From a virus: 35,681 nt of DNA. The position numbers were made by a program, and so were the translations under genes. The stretch lies in the UHGV virus genome UHGV-0164984. The stretch is one strand, 5' to 3'. Below are positions 1,929 through 14,695 of this stretch, piece by piece. Numbering within the stretch: position 1 is the first letter of the stretch; every line of letters begins with the position of its first letter. Under the pieces are notes generated by a model. That model searched no databases. It was given only the letters and a program-made list of their open reading frames with translations, and was not told the origin of the DNA.

Positions 1929-3107
1929 TTAACCAGTTTGAATTTCTCCATGGGGAACAACAACCCAATCTATATGGTTTTGCGTGTAGATCTTCGTCGA
2001 CTTCGCATCGCTATGCGCCATTCGTCCTTGTGGATCAATGCCTTGCTGATCGAAAAGATGCGCTGCTAATGCTCTAATTTCGTGAAAGGTTGGCCTTTCA
2101 TCCATCAGAAGATTGTCGCATAAACCTAACTTGTCGCGCGTAGCTGAAAATGACCGACTCAAATAGTCTGGTGCAACCTGAGTGGGGTGTGAAACCTCTT
2201 TGCTGCGTTTAACCTGCCGTTCTGGGAGCCTGTGAACGACAAACGGACTGGCCACATTATCTCGGCTATCGTCAATTATCCGTTTCAACTCTTCACCAAT
2301 TGGTATTGCAACGTGTGATGCCTCTTTTTTTTGCACTTTTTGCCTGTGGATGTAAAGCGTCCCATATATGCCATTTTGTGGTTGTTCGAACCAGACACAT
2401 CCACATATACCGTCTTTAGGTTCGCGAATTGAGTAACGGATTCGCGATACTTCGAGTCGTGCATGTGTAGTCTGCAATGCTAGGTCCATTGCTGTTCTTA
2501 ACCATGGTGCAGCGGCCTGCCTGATAGCTATAAAATGCTCGAGTGACAGGCGCCGTCTTTTCTTCTCATCAGTCCTACGCATTTTTTTTCTGATGGCCGG
2601 GTTATCCAGCATTAGTGATTCATCGACCGCATAAGAGAACAACTTTTTAAGAAAGCTGACCTTTCTGTTCTGCACATTTGCGGATGCGCTGGCATGATAT
2701 TTGTTGATGTAGGTATTAACGTGTTCAAGTTCGATATCGCATGCCGGAACATTTACGAAAAACGCTTTTACGCGTAGAGCGTCATTTTTCCAGTCATCTA
2801 AGGTGCTTTGGGAAGGACGTTCGTCTTCGATAATCCGGGTCATTATGTGATCAACATGTTCAGCAAATGGTTTTGCTTCTCCGATAACACCGCCAGATTC
2901 TCTAATAAGATTATCTACTGATGGAGATAATTCTGGTCGCATCCTCAGGTTGTACTCTCTGGCGATTGCAATGGCTATTGCCCTATCCTTACCTATATTT
3001 TTCTTCTTTCCGGTAATAAGTGTGAATTTATAAACACCTCGATCTTTATCAAAAATCAGATAATCAGGAAGATGTCTGTATTCTTTTTTACGTGGCCTTG
3101 CCGCCAT
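1929..3107 (-). CDS. Tyrosine-type site-specific integrase
   Basis: 392-394 aa ORF beside att and xis; C-terminal region with conserved R/H/Y-type catalytic residues (…HSDAKSTKIYTQ); second ATG at 3107 has GAGGG SD at 6 nt. Confidence 0.9.
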   Translation of the reverse strand: MAARPRKKEYRHLPDYLIFDKDRGVYKFTLITGKKKNIGKDRAIAIAIAREYNLRMRPELSPSVDNLIRESGGVIGEAKPFAEHVDHIMTRIIEDERPSQSTLDDWKNDALRVKAFFVNVPACDIELEHVNTYINKYHASASANVQNRKVSFLKKLFSYAVDESLMLDNPAIRKKMRRTDEKKRRRLSLEHFIAIRQAAAPWLRTAMDLALQTTHARLEVSRIRYSIREPKDGICGCVWFEQPQNGIYGTLYIHRQKVQKKEASHVAIPIGEELKRIIDDSRDNVASPFVVHRLPERQVKRSKEVSHPTQVAPDYLSRSFSATRDKLGLCDNLLMDERPTFHEIRALAAHLFDQQGIDPQGRMAHSDAKSTKIYTQNHIDWVVVPHGEIQTG

Positions 3108-3109
3108 GG

Positions 3110-3319
3110 TCATCCCTCATTTATTAACTTGCGAACAGCTTGACTAACCATTGAGTCGACTCCCCATTTTTCTGTTTCGCAGACAAAAACAGAACCGTCC
3201 ACGATGCGTCCCATGAGTAGACCGTTCTCGACCCAGCGTTTTATCGTTCGGTTGTCAGGAATTGAGCCATTAGAGAATTCACGGCGTCCCCATTGGCTCG
3301 CTTTCATTAGTTTTGCCAT
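3110..3319 (-). CDS. Excisionase (lambda Xis-like winged helix)
   Basis: MAKLMKASQWGRREFS...TIKRWVENG... parallels lambda Xis (…LQEWNARQRRPRSLETVRRWVREC…); GGAG SD 8 nt upstream of ATG at 3319; stop adjoins int start. Confidence 0.7.
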   Translation of the reverse strand: MAKLMKASQWGRREFSNGSIPDNRTIKRWVENGLLMGRIVDGSVFVCETEKWGVDSMVSQAVRKLINEG

Positions 3320-3380
3320 GGCTGTTTCTCCACTTAGCCCGCTGCACTCGGGCAGTAATATCAAATTCCAGTCCTGATAA

Positions 3381-3596
3381 TTAATTTTGTTCTCTGGTTG
3401 CTACCTGTTTTATTGGCCTGATGCTGTCCAGGATCAGACGGCGACGCATGTTTGGCGCACCCCAACGGTAACCAGTCTTTTTGTCGTAGGATTCACAACG
3501 TCCGGCAACCCAGGACGTTTCAGTGGAATGTAATTTCATCCGCTTTTCACCGTCTCGGGTGATAACAATTCCTGTATGAGTTTTTATCACGCTCAT
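3381..3596 (-). CDS. Hypothetical small prophage protein
   Basis: 71 aa ORF in the leftward operon, start overlapping the upstream gene stop. Confidence 0.45.
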   Translation of the reverse strand: MSVIKTHTGIVITRDGEKRMKLHSTETSWVAGRCESYDKKTGYRWGAPNMRRRLILDSIRPIKQVATREQN

Positions 3597-3955
3597 TTCT
3601 TAGTCTCCGGTGCTTTCGGCATTACTGCCCAGTGAGTGATATTGACGTTTTCAAGGTCCCCGACCTGAAATGTCCACTGCCATTCTCCGGTTTCTTTTTG
3701 CCCCCATGTGTACCAGAGAGAACGCCAGCCAATCAGCCAGCCTTCTCCACTAGCATCAAATAACAGAACACTTTCATTTGCTGGTGGCAGTTCAGCTGAC
3801 ACTGGTATTATTTTGTTTTCCAGTGCCGCACATTTAGCTTCAAGCGCGTTGAATTTACGTACTAGGTACTCAGCATTTGTTTCGTTCACTTTCAGATCTC
3901 GCGGTACACATTTCCCGCGAAGAAACCCTTCCATTTCGAAAACATTCATGCGCAT
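3593..3955 (-). CDS. Hypothetical prophage protein
   Basis: 120 aa ORF, Trp-rich C-terminal half, overlaps neighbouring gene ends (operon). Confidence 0.5.
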   Translation of the reverse strand: MRMNVFEMEGFLRGKCVPRDLKVNETNAEYLVRKFNALEAKCAALENKIIPVSAELPPANESVLLFDASGEGWLIGWRSLWYTWGQKETGEWQWTFQVGDLENVNITHWAVMPKAPETKK

Positions 3956-4482
3956 TTGCGTAACTCCGATAACTCGTTAAAACGTTCCATAAACATCCCG
4001 TAGGCCTGGCCCGGTGCCAGTGGAATCACGTTGAACATCTCTGTTGCCGGGATGCCTTCCAGTACAGGCCAGAAAGAGCCATCATCAAGCCCGAGATCGC
4101 GGCGTTCGGTTGCCAGCATGATGAGATCGGCATATTTCACATGCGTGCTCATAACCGGGGGTAACCCGTATTTCTCACGGATTACGGCGTCTATTTTTTC
4201 TTCCATCCGTTTATAGTCAGGAAGAAGGCGTTTCAGTGGAGCCGGGATGTCCTGGCAATACGCTTCTGTTGCATCATGCATTAACGCTTCAAAAGCAAAT
4301 TCCTGCGGTACCAGCTGGCTGCAAAGCACCGCATGTTGGGCGACGCTGTAGAAGTGTGAAAGATGTCCTGCAAAGCGACAGATATTTGAAAGGGAAACCG
4401 CGATATCGTTAATAACGATGTCGTCTTTATTTATCCTGTCATAATAAAAATGCTTCCCGGAAAAAGTTTTAATAAATGACAT
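3946..4482 (-). CDS. HD-domain metal-dependent phosphohydrolase
   Basis: His...HD motifs (FAGHLSH...LMHDATEAY); ATG at 4482 preceded by GGAGA SD; ORF track extends to a GTG at 4509. Confidence 0.8.
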   Translation of the reverse strand: MSFIKTFSGKHFYYDRINKDDIVINDIAVSLSNICRFAGHLSHFYSVAQHAVLCSQLVPQEFAFEALMHDATEAYCQDIPAPLKRLLPDYKRMEEKIDAVIREKYGLPPVMSTHVKYADLIMLATERRDLGLDDGSFWPVLEGIPATEMFNVIPLAPGQAYGMFMERFNELSELRKCA

Positions 4483-4606
4483 TTTGTTCTCCACGTATAT
4501 GCGCTGCACCGCGCTGAATTCGGGTAAAAGGAAGCCCTCACCGTCCGGCGATTATTGAGTCAATTACATTTCCATAAATGCCCCCGTAGGGGCGGTTAGT
4601 TTCTCC

Positions 4607-4695
4607 ACAAAACAGAGAAGAACACCTGTGGTGGCAGCCGCCCGGATGGATTGGGTTATGAGCCCGTCGTCCGATGATGCTCTTCTCTGTTTTGT
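4607..4695. repeat. Perfect 15-bp inverted repeat (ACAAAACAGAGAAGA / TCTTCTCTGTTTTGT) enclosing 59 nt, within GC-rich ORF-poor spacer
   Basis: Arms at 4607-4621 and 4681-4695 are exact reverse complements; flanked by hairpins at about 4580-4593 and 4706-4739. Confidence 0.6.
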
Positions 4696-4740
4696 AAAAA
4701 GGACGGTACCAGCCGGAAGCAAGGGTACAAGCTGGTACCG
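4696..4740 (-). terminator. Candidate intrinsic terminator for leftward transcripts
   Basis: On the minus strand: stem GGTACCAGC / GCTGGTACC (9 bp, extendable) followed by UUUUU (plus-strand A-run 4696-4700). Confidence 0.45.
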
Positions 4741-4960
4741 CCAAGACAACACACAGCATAAAGTTGTGGTGCCGGGTGCCTCCCGGTGCCTGGCGAAGGT
4801 TGTACACCAGACGGGTGGGTATCCACAGAAGGTCGACTGTCAGCCTCAACCTTAACCCGCGTGCGCTGAGCCGCATTCACCACAACGCTAAGGATTCTCT
4901 CTGGTTGAAAATACTTAGCTGTTATGTGCCTGCTTTTAGCCACATCAGGCGAGGTGGACC

Positions 4961-4995
4961 TGGTTATTCCCCAACAACAAGGATTCGGTATAATC
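4961..4995 (+). promoter_or_regulatory. Candidate sigma70 promoter for rightward accessory operon
   Basis: Perfect TATAAT at 4989-4994 about 30 nt upstream of the first micro-ORF; -35 region weak. Confidence 0.35.
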
Positions 4996-5026
4996 TGGAT
5001 ATCCCAACAACAGGTAGGAAGGAAAT

Positions 5027-5110
5027 ATGTACGTAGATAGCAATGAAAAATTTCATGTTCCGGTAAATCAGAGACCAGCACCGATCCCTGAGCCGAAACC
5101 TGAAATGTAA
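5027..5110 (+). CDS. Proline-rich micro-ORF A (27 aa; MYVDSNEKFHVPVNQRPAPIPEPKPEM)
   Basis: Strong SD AGGAAGG 4-5 nt upstream of ATG; shares an HVP...RP.P.PEPKP motif with two downstream micro-ORFs. Confidence 0.4.
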   Translation: MYVDSNEKFHVPVNQRPAPIPEPKPEM

Positions 5111-5120
5111 GGGAATAGAG

Positions 5121-5600
5121 ATGACTCGAGACGATCTAGCATTCGATATTCATTATTCTTTCTTTCTTGAGAAAATGAATTACACCCTTTTAAATCGGAT
5201 AGACAAGAGCATAACTCTTGTTCTCATTGTCTTGGGCTTTTCTGTTTTTGCGCCATATAGCAATATGTTTATTTTTGGCGCATCTGTAGCTATTTTGTCG
5301 GTGCTTCAATTGGTATACCAATTTGGGCAGGAAGCTGGCTTATCAAAGGAACAGATGCGACAGTATAAAAGGTTGATTGTTGAGTTTTCCTCCCTTTCTG
5401 ATGACGAACTACGCACTCGGTTTTTAAAGGTTCAAGACGCTGATAGTAATCCATGGAGATCTTTACAAGATGCTGCGTTCAAACGGACCTGTATTGCGCT
5501 GGGACGTGTTGATGAGTCAGAAATATCATTCATGCATAGCGTTATCGCATGGTTTGCTGGAGATTTGCCTCGGTCAAAAAGGTGTAATAATGACAAATAG
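5121..5600 (+). CDS. Small membrane protein, two predicted TM helices, unknown function
   Basis: 159 aa; hydrophobic stretch LVLIVLGFSVFAPYSNMFIFGASVAILSVLQLVY; AT-rich; in immunity-adjacent position on strand opposite to cI. Confidence 0.6.
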   Translation: MTRDDLAFDIHYSFFLEKMNYTLLNRIDKSITLVLIVLGFSVFAPYSNMFIFGASVAILSVLQLVYQFGQEAGLSKEQMRQYKRLIVEFSSLSDDELRTRFLKVQDADSNPWRSLQDAAFKRTCIALGRVDESEISFMHSVIAWFAGDLPRSKRCNNDK

Positions 5601-5706
5601 AATTCCCATAATCCCTAACCATGTACCTCCAAAGCCCAGACCACCATCACCAAAGTCACACAGGCTTTATGAGTATGAATTAATAATGGATTCTATATTG
5701 AGATGA
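5590..5706 (+). CDS. Proline-rich micro-ORF B (38 aa; ...IPNHVPPKPRPPSPKSHR...)
   Basis: ATG at 5590 overlaps the upstream gene end; AGGTG SD; motif paralogous to micro-ORFs A and C. Confidence 0.35.
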   Translation: MTNRIPIIPNHVPPKPRPPSPKSHRLYEYELIMDSILR

Positions 5707-5710
5707 CCAA

Positions 5711-5800
5711 ATGAATGCATTTATATATACATGGAAAGAGGATCATATACCCTTAAAACCTCGTCCTTCACCGCCAGAACCGAAGCCAAAATCCCGTTAA
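5711..5800 (+). CDS. Proline-rich micro-ORF C (29 aa; MNAFIYTWKEDHIPLKPRPSPPEPKPKSR)
   Basis: Starts 5 nt after micro-ORF B stop; same HIP.KPRP.PPEPKP motif encoded with synonymous codon differences. Confidence 0.35.
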   Translation: MNAFIYTWKEDHIPLKPRPSPPEPKPKSR

Positions 5801-5837
5801 GTGTTGGGGATCTCCAGATTGTTAAAGAGCGAAGCGT

Positions 5838-5866
5838 CCTATAGGGCGCTTTTTTGTTGCTAACGA
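5838..5866 (+). terminator. Intrinsic terminator ending the rightward accessory operon
   Basis: Stem AAGCGTCC / GGGCGCTT with loop TATA, followed by TTTTTTG. Confidence 0.5.
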
Positions 5867-5929
5867 ATCATCCTGGACTTCATATGCCCCAGGCGGCTAC
5901 TTCGTGGGCGTCCTGCCTGTTCGTTGTTT

Positions 5930-5970
5930 CGCTTGGGTACATTATGTATCTCAAAGGTACATTGTCAAGT
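5930..5970 (-). promoter_or_regulatory. Candidate pL-like early-left promoter with CI operator half-sites
   Basis: On minus strand TTGACA (plus 5963-5968), 16-17 nt, CATAAT/ATAATG (plus 5940-5946); GGTACA half-sites at 5936-5941 and 5956-5961 resemble the cI-cro operators. Confidence 0.45.
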
Positions 5971-5997
5971 ATAAAAAAACCTGCCGAAGCAGGTTCA
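5971..5997 (-). terminator. Intrinsic terminator downstream of cI
   Basis: On minus strand stem AACCTGC / GCAGGTT with loop TTCG then UUUUUUUAU, immediately after the cI stop. Confidence 0.55.
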
Positions 5998-6007
5998 TAA
6001 ACATTGA

Positions 6008-6682
6008 TTAGGCTTTGATTTTGTATCTTCTTGGTTTTCCTGAGAAAATCACTGTACCAATTATAGAGCAATTACCGTTGATCTTAATGTAAGGCTCAGG
6101 CCAGTTTGGGTTTAACGCTTTGAGATAACGCTGTGTCCCATCTTCTATCAACCTTTTGAAGGTGGTTTCACCTGTATCGTGCATCAATGCAATAACGTCG
6201 TCACCGTGGCAGGCAGGTACTTCAGGATCGACAAAAATCATGTCTCCCGGGCGGTACTCATCAATCATTGAATCACCTATCACCCGCAAGATATAAGTCA
6301 TTTCCCCACAGGGTACAGGGCAGGGATACGTTTCTGCTGTGCTCAAATCAACCTCAGAATATCCAACTTCTTTCCATGCTCCGGCCTGTACCCATGATAT
6401 GACAGGGACTAATGTGATTTGTTTATTAGTGATTGAAACATCAGGTTTTTTTGTGATGTTCGTTGTCTGGTGTTCTTGATCGAGCCATCCGACAGGCAGG
6501 TCGAAACATTTTTCGATGTGTCGTGCCATGCTGTCACCGATATTTTTAGTAGCACCATCTCCCATAAACCTGCTGGTCTGGGTTGGCTCGCGATCAATCA
6601 TAGTGGCAAAGGAAGAATTCCCGCCAACACCATCTCTCAGTTTTCTGGCGTTAGACCGCCGGATGTCATGGATTGTTTTCAT
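6008..6682 (-). CDS. CI-type phage repressor (HTH + S24 LexA-like peptidase domain)
   Basis: 224 aa; C-terminal GDSM serine motif and downstream Lys (TFKRL) typical of S24 autoproteolytic repressors; divergent from cro with operators between. Confidence 0.9.
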   Translation of the reverse strand: MKTIHDIRRSNARKLRDGVGGNSSFATMIDREPTQTSRFMGDGATKNIGDSMARHIEKCFDLPVGWLDQEHQTTNITKKPDVSITNKQITLVPVISWVQAGAWKEVGYSEVDLSTAETYPCPVPCGEMTYILRVIGDSMIDEYRPGDMIFVDPEVPACHGDDVIALMHDTGETTFKRLIEDGTQRYLKALNPNWPEPYIKINGNCSIIGTVIFSGKPRRYKIKA

Positions 6683-6688
6683 AACGAA

Positions 6689-6768
6689 ATTAAAACCCTT
6701 GTACCGTTAAGGTACAAGTATCTTGAAGGTTCATTTCAATCATGTAATATGTACACCAGAGGTACATA
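6689..6768. promoter_or_regulatory. Divergent pRM/pR region with palindromic operators
   Basis: Perfect palindrome CTTGTACC-GTTAA-GGTACAAG at 6698-6718; second site ATGTAC-N7-GTACAT at 6749-6767; pR-like TTGAAG (6723-6728) 16 nt TAATAT (6745-6750). Confidence 0.55.
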
Positions 6769-7004: not shown

Positions 7005-7574
7005 ATGAGGCTAATCGTGGGTAAGCATCACTGGAAAATAGAAAAACAGCCTGAGTGGTACGTGAAAGCTGTCAGAAAAACTATCGCGGCGTTGCCGGGT
7101 GGTTACGCTGAAGCGGCTGACTGGCTCGATGTAACAGAAAACGCTTTATTCAACCGCCTTCGTGCAGATGGCGATCAGATTTTCCCGCTGGGATGGGCAA
7201 TGGTTTTACAGCGTGCTGGTGGCACTCACTTCATTGCTGATGCTGTGGCGCAGTCTGCAAATGGCGTCTTTGTGTCTCTTCCTGACGTCGAGGATGTGGA
7301 CAACGCCGATATTAACCAGCGTCTGCTGGAAGTCATTGAACAGATCGGCAGTTATTCAAAACAGATTCGTTCAGCAATCGAAGACGGTGTAGTGGAACCG
7401 CATGAGAAGACAGCAATTAACGACGAGCTGTATCTCTCAATTTCGAAGCTGCAGGAGCATGCAGCACTTGTCTACAAAATTTTTTGCATTTCAGAAAGTA
7501 ATGACGCCCGCGAGTGTGCAGCTCCGGGCGTCGTGGCGTCGATTGCTTCTGGTTGTGGAGAAACTAACGCATGA
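7005..7574 (+). CDS. CII-like phage regulatory protein (e14 YmfL-like, 189 aa)
   Basis: Position after cro; size and [19 protein letters not shown] segment resemble CII/CP76-type regulators as I recall them; alternative GTG start at 7017 with GAGG SD. Confidence 0.55.
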
Positions 7575-12242: not shown

Positions 12243-12257
12243 GGGGCGGTGCCCCTT
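12230..12257 (-). terminator. Weak hairpin terminator between Q and the convergent MBL gene
   Basis: Stem AAGGGGC / GCCCCTT (12241-12257) with a U-rich stretch on the minus-strand side. Confidence 0.35.
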
Positions 12258-13347
12258 ATAAGCAAACAGCAGCGTAATGTGTTTCAACCTTAGGACTAGA
12301 CGTTAAGCAATTACTAACAGCAACTATTCCAAATTTATTGTTATTATTTGAAAATGAAACTGAACTTTTCATCTTCGCTAATATGCTCCGTGCTTCAGCA
12401 ATCGCAGGTGATTTTTCTTGAGCGTTATCACTTTTAGGCATCGATGTACAGTATAATGCTGATGATTTTGATTTGTAGAGGTCGATCATATCCTGCCGTG
12501 GTAGTGATGATTTATCATAAGTGGTTAAAATCGAAATAGGGTCTTTTTTGATTAGCTTGTTCCATGTTTCCTCATGAAAGCCTGTTTGGGAACCGTGGTG
12601 TGGAAGTTTGAAAATACCTGCTAAGTTTGGTTCTGGACGATTTATTGCATTGCAAACGGAATTCCATCCAGTGTTTTTACTAACTTCTAAATCTGCGCCT
12701 AATAATACTTCATTATTTTCTGATGTTGGAGAGCATATTCTGATTACAACGCAGTAGTGATTAGGATTAACTAATTTAGCAGACATGGCTATTTCGCTAA
12801 AATTTGATGATAATTTTGTAGAGTTTGCGAATTCAAGATCAGAGTTTGTTATATCCATATCAGAAGGCGATAACGAATGTACTTGAATATTCTCGCTGCT
12901 TTTGAATAGTATGCAGTCTTTTTTTGCATGGACAAGACGATCATTTTTGTGCAAATCATAGAATAAAGACATGACCTTGTTTATTTCTTTAGTTTTTGCC
13001 ATATCCTCACCATTAACACTTAGTGCATTAATATATCCTCTAAATTCAGATGTGTTCAATGCTGCGCTAATTACAACTTTTGCATTTTTGCAACTATTAA
13101 TAATTTCGGCTATCCCTTTAATATGATCATCGTGAAAATGACTAATGACTATCAGTTTTACTTCATCTTGTGGATTAACACCTTTTTCTTTCAGATAATC
13201 TAATGCTGCGGGGCGTTTATTATCATTTAAACAGGAATCAATAATCATCCATTCATTTAACCCAAGACGAACGACAATTGATTCGCCAATACCTTTACCA
13301 AAAACAATTGTTTCACAGATAGAGTTTTGAACAGTAGGCACCTGCAT
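12256..13347 (-). CDS. Metallo-beta-lactamase-fold hydrolase (distal gene of AT-rich cassette)
   Basis: 363 aa; HxHxDH motif SHFHDDH encoded at 13123-13143; additional His (KLPHHGSQ); AT-rich. Confidence 0.8.
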   Translation of the reverse strand: MQVPTVQNSICETIVFGKGIGESIVVRLGLNEWMIIDSCLNDNKRPAALDYLKEKGVNPQDEVKLIVISHFHDDHIKGIAEIINSCKNAKVVISAALNTSEFRGYINALSVNGEDMAKTKEINKVMSLFYDLHKNDRLVHAKKDCILFKSSENIQVHSLSPSDMDITNSDLEFANSTKLSSNFSEIAMSAKLVNPNHYCVVIRICSPTSENNEVLLGADLEVSKNTGWNSVCNAINRPEPNLAGIFKLPHHGSQTGFHEETWNKLIKKDPISILTTYDKSSLPRQDMIDLYKSKSSALYCTSMPKSDNAQEKSPAIAEARSILAKMKSSVSFSNNNNKFGIVAVSNCLTSSPKVETHYAAVCL

Positions 13348-13370
13348 TCACCGTATTGCGTAATTTCTAA

Positions 13371-13943
13371 TTATTGTTTAAAAATTCTTCTTAGGCGAAA
13401 TTCGGATACTCTTTTTTCTTGTCCAAATAAAGTTTTTTCCATACCAACATACCAATAAAAAATAGCGTTTTCGACAAGTTTTTGTTGATCGCTTTTACTA
13501 AATTCATCTGAAGAGAACGTTATCTCATCAATGAATTCATGAGAGTTTATATCATATACTCTAGCATGTATTTCTTTATTTGATTTCATATTGACAATTT
13601 TGTCAATTATACCATAAGTATCTAATGCCTTTTCAAGAAAGGTTATTTTTTCTTTAAGTCTTGCCTTGAGTTTTTTATGCTGAGTTCTATTTTTCACTCC
13701 TTTTTGTGTAGATGGGAATGGTTGCGGAGTAGGTATTTCAATTATATTTGTTGAATATTTTGAGCTGCAAGTTTCTTGCTGCTGTTCAAATGTTTCAGAA
13801 TAATTTTCAAAACCTGTCTTAATTATACAGGAAAGAGTTATGTTGTGGGTCTTTACAAATGTTTCAATGTTTTTTTCTTTTTTTGTTACGCAACGTGTAT
13901 TACTAAGGCTGGAAGAATTTTCAGGATAGGTTAATATATTCAT
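13371..13943 (-). CDS. Hypothetical protein (middle gene of AT-rich cassette)
   Basis: 190 aa ORF; start overlaps the upstream gene stop (ATGA at 13940-13943), implying translational coupling. Confidence 0.65.
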   Translation of the reverse strand: MNILTYPENSSSLSNTRCVTKKEKNIETFVKTHNITLSCIIKTGFENYSETFEQQQETCSSKYSTNIIEIPTPQPFPSTQKGVKNRTQHKKLKARLKEKITFLEKALDTYGIIDKIVNMKSNKEIHARVYDINSHEFIDEITFSSDEFSKSDQQKLVENAIFYWYVGMEKTLFGQEKRVSEFRLRRIFKQ

Positions 13944-14695
13944 GATAGAATCCGCTTAAACATTTGTTCATGGCTGAGGATATCATTCTTAATTGCTGCG
14001 GAAATATGTTTTTGAATTATATTTGGGAGTAATTGAGTGAATGCAACAGCGTCACGAATATCTTTCAAAGCTAGATCGTGATTGTATTGAACGTTTAAAC
14101 CAAATACATCTGGACTAACTTTTCTATACGAAGCATAAGAGACATTGATAGCCTCTTTGTAAATTGATTTATCTTCCTTGTTAGAGTTTTCTATTGCAAT
14201 GACTAAATTTCTCATCCCATAATGATATTCAACTTCATCCTGAAGTATTTCTGATTTATTGTGTTCTTGCCAATAAATTTTGGGGACTAATGCATCTCCT
14301 AACTGATTCCAGTTGGTTTCATTATTAAAATGATAATCAAAAAGGGTGTTTATTCCAACAGCTTGTGTCTCAGAATGAGGAAACATAGAAAATATTGATG
14401 ACACTAAGTCTGCCAAGGAATTTTCAAGCCCTGTTTTTTTCAGTTGAAATACTACTTTTGTTGGTATGCACGTAATCTCAATCCAACCGTAATCTGTTGT
14501 TATTGAATCACCATCAAAAGTTGTGTTTGAATTTGCTATATCTTCCTCTCTTAGCAAATCGTATCTTCTAAACCATTCAGATGAAAACATCAATGGAGTA
14601 ATGATGTTAGAGATCCATACAACATTAATCGTATGCTTAATAAGTTTGAAAGTCATAAATTGTTCTTGGCCCTCAGAATGAAAACCTAAGTGCAT
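13940..14695 (-). CDS. Hypothetical protein (first gene of AT-rich cassette)
   Basis: 251 aa ORF; alternative ATG at 14656 preceded by GAGGG; no recognisable motif. Confidence 0.65.
   Translation of the reverse strand: MHLGFHSEGQEQFMTFKLIKHTINVVWISNIITPLMFSSEWFRRYDLLREEDIANSNTTFDGDSITTDYGWIEITCIPTKVVFQLKKTGLENSLADLVSSIFSMFPHSETQAVGINTLFDYHFNNETNWNQLGDALVPKIYWQEHNKSEILQDEVEYHYGMRNLVIAIENSNKEDKSIYKEAINVSYASYRKVSPDVFGLNVQYNHDLALKDIRDAVAFTQLLPNIIQKHISAAIKNDILSHEQMFKRILS

Follow-up and report, generated by a model that had tools for sequence, protein, structure and literature searches.

A framed moron operon beside the repressor gene of a lambdoid prophage: a predicted two-helix membrane protein among candidate proline-rich micropeptides

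Between the early-left promoter and the early-left genes of UHGV virus genome UHGV-0164984 lies a small operon that is read against its surroundings. The whole stretch analysed here (35,681 nucleotides, hereafter the window) comprises a complete E. coli prophage of the lambdoid group, with a mosaic make-up drawn from SfV/SfIV, CPS-53 and e14 types. The operon centres on ORF159, an open reading frame (ORF) of 159 amino acids at 5121-5600 on the plus strand. The cassette runs from about 4990 to 5860 on the same strand (about 870 bp) and consists of a leader, a micro-ORF called A, ORF159, two further micro-ORFs called B and C, and a terminator. The initial annotation had pictured a lone AT-rich gene with two transmembrane (TM) helices next to the repressor gene cI on the opposite strand. 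The gene, its composition, its two predicted helices and its neighbour were all recovered in the present analysis, cI lying at 6008-6682 on the minus strand and coding for a YmfK-type repressor with an S24 peptidase domain (Pfam, E=1.5e-26). The unit, however, is not a single gene but an operon of three to four cistrons with proline-rich micropeptides.

ORF159 stands out from the prophage by its GC content of 0.398 (39.8%), against 0.503 (50.3%) for the window; the exchangeable cargo at 5013-5801 as a whole stands at 0.402. By Kyte-Doolittle hydropathy it has two hydrophobic segments, at residues about 31-47 and 50-68, with a loop of only two or three residues between them. AlphaFold2 gives a long helical hairpin (H3-43 and H50-87) followed by four short helices, with a mean pLDDT of 78. 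On these models ORF159 would be an inner-membrane hairpin protein of N-in/C-in topology. Is it a real gene? Identical copies of a 901-bp cassette were found in 52 of 5426 complete E. coli genomes (about 1%), and homologues span identities from 99% down to about 25%. Seventy-eight of them are close, and those with 47-99% identity come from Salmonella, Cronobacter, Enterobacter, Klebsiella, Citrobacter, Leclercia, Pectobacterium, Brenneria and Sodalis. A profile search over 1.84 billion representatives gave a family of 252 cluster representatives at 50% identity, nearly all of them stand-alone, single-domain proteins of roughly 155 amino acids (145-180). ORF159 matches PHROG 6315, a family with no annotated function (E=2.8e-51), and the contexts examined for the family are phages, prophages or phage-plasmids only. 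The gene is thus real and a fairly common prophage moron.

The micro-ORFs are packed closely around it. Micro-ORF A (5027-5110, plus strand; 27 amino acids, MYVDSNEKFHVPVNQRPAPIPEPKPEM) has its own Shine-Dalgarno site, as every micro-ORF here does, and ends 10 nt short of the ATG of ORF159; its stop codon coincides with or adjoins the ribosome-binding site of ORF159. The ATG of micro-ORF B (5590-5706, plus strand; 38 amino acids, MTNRIPIIPNHVPPKPRPPSPKSHRLYEYELIMDSILR) overlaps the end of ORF159, and micro-ORF C (5711-5800, plus strand; 29 amino acids, MNAFIYTWKEDHIPLKPRPSPPEPKPKSR) is a second downstream paralogue. The micropeptides share the core H-x-P-x3-R-P-x2-P-P-K. Micro-ORF C has the core H-x-P-x-K-P-R-P as B does, but in different codons, and a second downstream motif of this kind also occurs in Pseudescherichia and in locus L087. 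Their charges differ, A being acidic in relatives and B basic. Given these junctions, A, ORF159, B and C would be made together by translational coupling.

Are such short frames translated at all? Comparison with relatives gives evidence that they are, and that they are under selection. A proline-rich upstream ORF is kept in every enterobacterial relative examined (for example MSDEDFDYFEKHMPVRQRPPAPPKED, MSKANREDGYEEKHLPLKQRPPAPPKPKEDDD and MSYDYEERHMPPFKRPEPPPKPDDSD), with a gap of 6-10 nt, mostly 8 nt, to the main ATG. Such an ORF also precedes far more distant relatives (26-39% identity, among them relatives at 34% in P2-like and other phages), namely those of Fels-2 (MSDSDNFHVLPRPAPAPKPEPGQDKK), a Yersinia P2-like phage, phage EKP1, a Pantoea prophage, a prophage on a Salmonella megaplasmid and Providencia PSTNGR2lys, where it is annotated as QPB11296.1; locus L105 has one too. 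Overall, the micro-ORFs are found in register at all enterobacterial loci and at most of the distant ones. Downstream, micro-ORF B is kept 3' of the relatives in Pseudescherichia, Sodalis, Klebsiella and loci L083, L087 and L105, and enterobacterial examples of the downstream peptides are MAKPPAGGHIPPRPRPPAPPKTKR and MSSPIIPNHAPPFPRPPAPQPKPK. In the codon alignment the invariant H, P, R and P residues are written with synonymously differing codons, and the combination of proline richness with the motif occurs in only 0.4% of the small ORFs of the loci fetched. In Pectobacterium (L009-L011, gene 4001-4543, P0022) the two-TM protein continues in frame, past its usual C-terminus, into the micro-ORF B peptide (...KMAKPPVDGHIPPRPRPPAPPKAQN), and this natural fusion points to a functional link of peptide and membrane protein at the protein level. 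Protein databases lack the micropeptides, which are effectively unannotated: when one of them was searched against 5.8 billion protein sequences, the query alone came back. An attenuator-type RNA at the junction of the upstream ORF (uORF) and ORF159 was also considered and was dropped, no conserved RNA structure being found across that junction.

The cassette is a moron operon complete in itself, and the slot that it occupies is given over to cargo. When the window is aligned with SfIV and PhiR29, only 5013-5801 differs, while the flanks at 4582-5012 and 5802-6100 are 95-97% identical, and both relatives hold different plus-strand cargos in the slot. SfV has the common flanks and a minus-strand cargo, and it is without both frame elements. 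The marks of a moron are thus all present, that is, a terminator, a deviant GC content (0.40 against 0.50), conserved flanks and a cargo that is swapped in relatives. The 5' frame element (4926-5012, plus strand) contains a hairpin (CCAC...GTGG), two CCCCAACAACA repeats, a candidate -10 hexamer and the 5' arm of an inverted repeat. About 50 nt of it are invariant in E. coli, Pseudescherichia, Sodalis, Pectobacterium and Klebsiella, whose coding DNA is only about 67% identical, and SfIV and PhiR29 have the same element despite their other cargo. Its core was found in at least 120 IMG/VR contigs. Among the matches listed, 94 of 120 have the 3' frame element 450-850 nt downstream of the 5' core, and these 94 loci hold at least eight unrelated, uncharacterised cargo types. 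They include a 144-amino-acid protein (53 contigs), coiled-coil/zinc-ribbon proteins, a 167-amino-acid protein and an LprI-like secreted protein; none of the cargo types gave an informative match to Pfam or PADLOC. Prophage e14 of E. coli K-12 (L141, NC_000913.3 1201380-1202260) has this cI/pL block too, but of the 5' element only the first half, with the hairpin and without the CCCCAACAACA core, and its cargo is ymfI (plus strand) and ymfJ (minus strand). The idea that the cargo had been inserted in a palindrome, AATCTGGATATCCAGATT, so that empty sites might be found, was given up, as the four IMG/VR matches were unrelated coding sequences.

How is the cassette transcribed? The initial annotation had given the gene a promoter (TATAAT, 4989-4994) and a terminator (5838-5866) of its own, and had set it convergent to a strong pL-like promoter on the minus strand. 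The facing promoter is there: pL, the early-left promoter, reads TTGACA-16-CATAAT from 5968 to 5941 on the minus strand and matches the consensus at 11 of 12 positions. The convergent geometry is likewise real and conserved: the gene has pL/OL on one side and the early-left genes on the other, runs antisense to pL and is closed by a terminator of its own. This terminator exists at somewhat different coordinates from those first given, the terminator scan placing an intrinsic stem-loop at 5831-5852 with a T-run to 5859 on the plus strand. It is about 90-100% conserved across genera and cargos (about 90% in Sodalis, Pectobacterium and Klebsiella). The promoter stands less firmly. The hexamer TATAAT can be read from the sequence at 4989-4994 on the plus strand, but the -35 region is poor (3 of 6 positions), for which reason a consensus scan made no promoter call there. 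The -10 is also strain-specific: the perfect TATAAT is the product of a 1-nt A insertion present only in the E. coli version, and all relatives read GGTTAATCT.

Two operator copies (OL; TGTAYC-N5-GGTACA) at 5925-5941 and 5945-5961 overlap pL, and OL1 covers its spacer and -10. Three more copies lie at 6700-6766 between cI and cro, at pR/pRM, so that pL and pR share the motif. In the rest of the window there is no other good copy, only a weak one inside cI (6301-6317); in all, 12 matches were counted in the window against 2.6 expected. Since two operators overlap pL and the others are confined to the gap between cI and cro, pL is called genuine and repressor-controlled. The cI transcript ends at a predicted terminator at 5977-5996 on the minus strand, and beyond cI in the window come a cro-like gene and a cII-like gene (7005-7574), both on the plus strand. 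Direct control of the cassette by cI was considered and dropped, since a motif scan of the window found no operator motif near the 5' element of the cassette.

The ends of the cassette transcript may find each other. An inverted repeat of 17-18 nt pairs the 5' leader with the 3' untranslated region just before the terminator: its 5' arm (AATCTGGATATCCCAAC, 4992-5008, plus strand) is the reverse complement of its 3' arm (GTTGGGGATCTCCAGATT, 5803-5820, plus strand), which lies inside the conserved 3' frame element (5802-5860). The arms pair in both the minimum free energy (MFE) and the centroid folds of the 878-nt transcript (z = -2.0). There is no covariation for this pairing; the 5' arm does not vary at all, and conservation of the 3' arm is only partial. 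The repeat could act as an mRNA fold-back, or as protein-binding half-palindromes around GGATATCC. Separately, the CCCCAACAACA repeats at 4969-4980 and 5003-5012 are rich in C and A and resemble the GcvB R1 target or the Hfq ARN motif; the second would fall in the 5' untranslated region just before the ribosome-binding site of micro-ORF A. An AgvB-type anti-small RNA, an identity prompted by CAACAACA repeats, was rejected, because AgvB is a small RNA (sRNA) of 51-60 nt that sits at the PR' moron site of lambdoid phages (PMC4104026). Over the full window Rfam had no match at gathering thresholds, and at 4850-5950 its matches were at chance level only.

Is there any rule in how members of the family are oriented? 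The family gene runs antisense to its lytic neighbours in 12 of 12 independent contexts, which comprise lambdoid prophages of six genera, the P2-like Fels-2, a Yersinia phage, an Arsenophonus phage-plasmid, Providencia PSTNGR2lys, phage EKP1 and prophages on Pantoea and Salmonella replicons. Three positions are used, namely the pL slot of lambdoid phages, the early operons of P2-like phages and phage-plasmids, and the late region, the last in EKP1 (between Q and holin) and in the Pantoea prophage (between the terminase and lysis genes). This pattern fits what would be expected of a gene that is expressed in the lysogen and silenced by lytic transcription. In the window the terminator scan predicted no minus-strand intrinsic terminator between pL and the early-left genes; therefore a derepressed pL should transcribe through the cassette in antisense. 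Note that the strand of some relatives has probably been misannotated. In Fels-2 (L002, NC_010463.1 30256-30798) the coding sequence STM2733.1 is annotated opposite the two-TM homologue and its proline-rich uORF, and apparently the same holds in Yersinia phage vB_YenM_42.18 (L003, 2950-3615), where vBYenM4218_008 lies opposite the homologue and uORF. A literature search for STM2734, the presumed tag of the Fels-2 homologue, found nothing.

There is a further question of kinship. SLATT proteins are predicted pore-forming effectors whose hallmark is a hairpin of two TM helices in an all-helical domain, and both hydropathy and AlphaFold2 give ORF159 that form. When 116 diverse members of the family were scanned singly, 44 matched NCBIfam NF033632 (SLATT_4), all weakly, with a best E of 2.2e-5. 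Further weak matches were to SLATT_1 (12 members), TIGR04402 (8) and SLATT_fungal (2), and Pfam SLATT_5 and SLATT_4 each matched one member at E of about 0.03-0.04. Three homologues carry SLATT names in UniRef. In a Foldseek search of viral models (BFVD) the top matches are mostly annotated SLATT, with probability 0.9-1.0 and weak E values of 0.04-1, whereas structure searches against PDB gave generic hairpins only. As these profile matches are sub-threshold, the fold matches are weak and ORF159 itself reaches no threshold, we use only the label "SLATT-like" for what is probably a distant, stand-alone relative of the SLATT proteins.

What, then, would the operon do? It is probably a lysogen-expressed anti-phage or toxin-like module, and we infer that it most likely serves defence, acting through abortive infection or exclusion. 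A possible working is as follows. In the lysogen pL is repressed and the operon would be expressed. ORF159 would be a latent effector able to permeabilise the membrane, and the cytoplasmic proline-rich peptides would check or tune it in the manner of an antitoxin or a sensor. Once a heterologous phage infects, this block would be lifted, whereupon the membrane would be depolarised and the infection aborted, or the entry of DNA would be blocked. On induction, antisense transcription from the derepressed pL through the whole cassette would shut it off, and the phage's own lytic cycle would be spared. We put this chain as a whole forward tentatively, as a quite possible account that may nonetheless prove wrong.

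One elaboration of it is much more speculative and, in our estimate, rather improbable. It makes the micropeptides the sensing or gating half of a two-part immune module, either as an inhibitor that reports the state of translation, through polyproline and elongation factor P (EF-P), or as ligands like the proline-rich antimicrobial peptides (PrAMPs). In the former variant a phage that disturbs translation would stop the supply of an unstable inhibitor, and the SLATT-like pore would open; in the latter, the basic peptides themselves would act as PrAMP-like ligands and bind the ribosome tunnel or a phage protein. If either variant were true, the operon would be a peptide-gated, stand-alone SLATT system without a nucleotide second messenger.

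Several results weigh against the proposed working and should be noticed. Outside the E. coli variant the promoter of the cassette is weak or uncertain. ORF159 has no match in PADLOC at E<=1, and it matched none of the curated SLATT profiles (Pfam PF18181/18183/18184/18186/18160; NCBIfam NF033632-35) at E<=0.1, so the SLATT link is that of sub-threshold matches in relatives and Foldseek E values of 0.04-1. Known SLATT systems have a partner that generates a signal (SMODS, SLOG or a reverse transcriptase, RT), while no SMODS, SLOG, RT or TIR partner adjoins the family member in any of the 12 contexts; the contextual hallmark of SLATT systems is therefore absent. An antitoxin-like partner is usually encoded upstream and made in excess, but here micropeptides lie on both sides of ORF159. 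In the AlphaFold2 model of the Pectobacterium fusion the proline-rich tail is not confidently docked (linker pLDDT below 50, last ten residues up to 64). Finally, the slot is not an established defence hotspot, because its other cargos are likewise uncharacterised.

The proposed defence module has to be weighed against other explanations, and the one that survives best concerns the micropeptides only and is compatible with the others. It holds that the micro-ORFs act purely in cis, by proline stalling relieved by EF-P, as arrest peptides or as re-initiation ramps, and so set the expression of ORF159. Consecutive prolines are the kind of motif that stalls ribosomes in an EF-P-dependent manner, and the peptides contain them (PPKPRPP, RPPAPP). 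The uORF keeps a fixed place on the main ribosome-binding site, and the RAPP-type arrest peptides offer a precedent (PMC10951233, PMC7897499). Yet a purely cis-acting role is hard to give to B and C, which follow ORF159 and have nothing downstream to regulate, or to a B peptide that occurs as a C-terminal fusion in Pectobacterium. The conserved residues include H, R and K and not only proline, the RAPP/RGPP motif is absent from the peptides, and the junction offers no conserved RNA structure for a stalled ribosome to remodel. We therefore consider this explanation unlikely, though it keeps a real chance.

Classical superinfection exclusion was the idea first put forward for this gene. HK97 gp15, P22 SieA and DicB are models for exclusion at the inner membrane, and by analogy ORF159 would block DNA injection or a receptor or channel while the cell survives. 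A small inner-membrane protein from a moron adjoining the immunity region, in an orientation that fits lysogen expression, speaks for such a mechanism. Against it, the kinship of ORF159, sub-threshold as it is, is to SLATT pore-type effectors and to no superinfection exclusion family. Pfam gave ORF159 no match at E<=0.1, and none of the known defence, superinfection exclusion (including SieB, PF14163, and Imm) and Rex models in Pfam and PADLOC matched it; moreover, two or three coupled micropeptides are left unexplained. We regard exclusion in this classical form as improbable.

A toxin or addiction module similar to hok/mok/sok appears to us no less doubtful. Here ORF159 would be a uORF-dependent membrane toxin, its mRNA would be kept inert or stable by fold-back, and antisense transcription from pL would counteract it; such a module would serve prophage maintenance or the timing of host killing rather than defence. 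In its favour, the uORF ends within the main Shine-Dalgarno site, with a fixed spacing of 6-10 nt (mostly 8 nt), both folds (MFE and centroid) bring the ends of the transcript together through the 17-18 nt inverted repeat, and pL is the only antisense promoter. But ORF159 is three times the size of a type I toxin and has a soluble domain of about 90 amino acids, and no dedicated antisense sRNA promoter was found. The fold-back also lacks covariation, and a start site about 7 nt after the -10 would transcribe only about 9 nt of the 5' arm. Weakest is a lysogenic-conversion factor that has nothing to do with phages (membrane physiology, stress tolerance or colonisation), which is very unlikely: many morons aid the host in other ways and a predicted LprI-like periplasmic protein is another cargo of the slot, but the family is confined to the phage, prophage and phage-plasmid contexts examined and ORF159 is SLATT-like.

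On the early-left side of the slot, the gene map of the window gives, all on the minus strand, an integrase (1929-3113), xis (3110-3364) and a DUF551 gene with yfdR (3593-4509). Relative to SfV, SfIV and PhiR29, about 1.3 kb with yfdQ and yfdP (SfV orf31/orf32) is deleted at about 4582-4593, and the remnant at 4564-4876 (minus strand) is a frameshifted pseudogene in the RefSeq annotation. A second antisense island, of three genes on the minus strand at 12256-14695, lies inside the rightward operon. It encodes a 363-amino-acid protein of the metallo-beta-lactamase fold that matches PADLOC RTasMBL (E=4e-12) and LmuA (E=2e-7) and is a candidate for defence cargo.

If the proposed working of the ORF159 operon is true, it describes a prophage immunity architecture not described before, in which a SLATT-like protein is under proline-rich micropeptides instead of a nucleotide-signalling enzyme. 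In that case the portable frame, a near-invariant 5' leader and a 3' terminator, would mark an immunity-adjacent slot in hundreds of enterobacterial prophages. With at least eight unknown cargos, this framed slot would be a place to mine for lysogen-expressed functions.

How does the cassette compare with known systems? Like lambda rexA/rexB, and also 933W stk, BTP1 bstA and P22/lambda sieB, it lies beside the repressor gene and is presumably expressed in the lysogen. RexB, an effector in the membrane, depolarises the cell. However, a system of the RexAB type is a RexA and RexB pair co-transcribed with cI from pRM, whereas the cassette is read from the other strand under signals and a terminator of its own, has micropeptides in place of a RexA-like sensor, and shows no sequence relation to Rex in Pfam or PADLOC. 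It would resemble hok/mok/sok in having a membrane protein whose translation may be coupled to an upstream or overlapping small ORF, a predicted pairing of the 5' and 3' ends and a putative antisense off-switch. The hok/sok type is a single-TM toxin of about 50 amino acids with a cis-encoded antisense sRNA, while ORF159 has 159 amino acids, two TM helices and a soluble domain, its small ORFs code for conserved proline-rich peptides, and its fold-back shows no covariation. Between 4400 and 7100 the only antisense promoter facing the cassette is pL, and no dedicated sRNA was found.

The RAPP-type arrest peptides (ApdA/ApdP, SecM-like) resemble the micro-ORFs in being short upstream ORFs, with Arg followed by prolines, before a membrane-related gene. 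Unlike them, the cassette peptides have no N-terminal signal or TM segment, have copies also 3' of the gene, and are not associated with Sec/YidC genes (PMC7897499, PMC10951233). Their motif is R-P-[PAE]-x-P-P and not R-[AG]-P-P, and the downstream gene is no localisation factor. Peptide cores such as PPRPRPPAP resemble the ribosome-tunnel-binding PRPRPP cores of PrAMPs (oncocin, Bac7, apidaecin), a likeness that serves as a lead only. PrAMPs are secreted by animals and imported through SbmA, whereas the cassette peptides would be bacterial and intracellular, 22-53 amino acids long and genetically tied to a membrane protein.

A further comparison is with the SLATT superfamily. ORF159 has the same predicted two-TM helical hairpin with flanking helices, and the contexts are likewise those of conflict or mobile elements. 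In DRT10 all three components, the SLATT protein included, are required for antiviral activity (10.64898/2026.04.29.721553). ORF159, in contrast, stands alone save for the proline-rich micropeptides, without a partner that generates nucleotides or cDNA (SMODS, SLOG, RT or TIR). Literature searches on SLATT with "proline-rich" and on exclusion by small prophage proteins found nothing relevant. Lysogen-expressed membrane effectors and SLATT-type systems are a known kind, and what is new here is a SLATT-like protein with two predicted TM helices set among proline-rich micropeptides in a framed slot.

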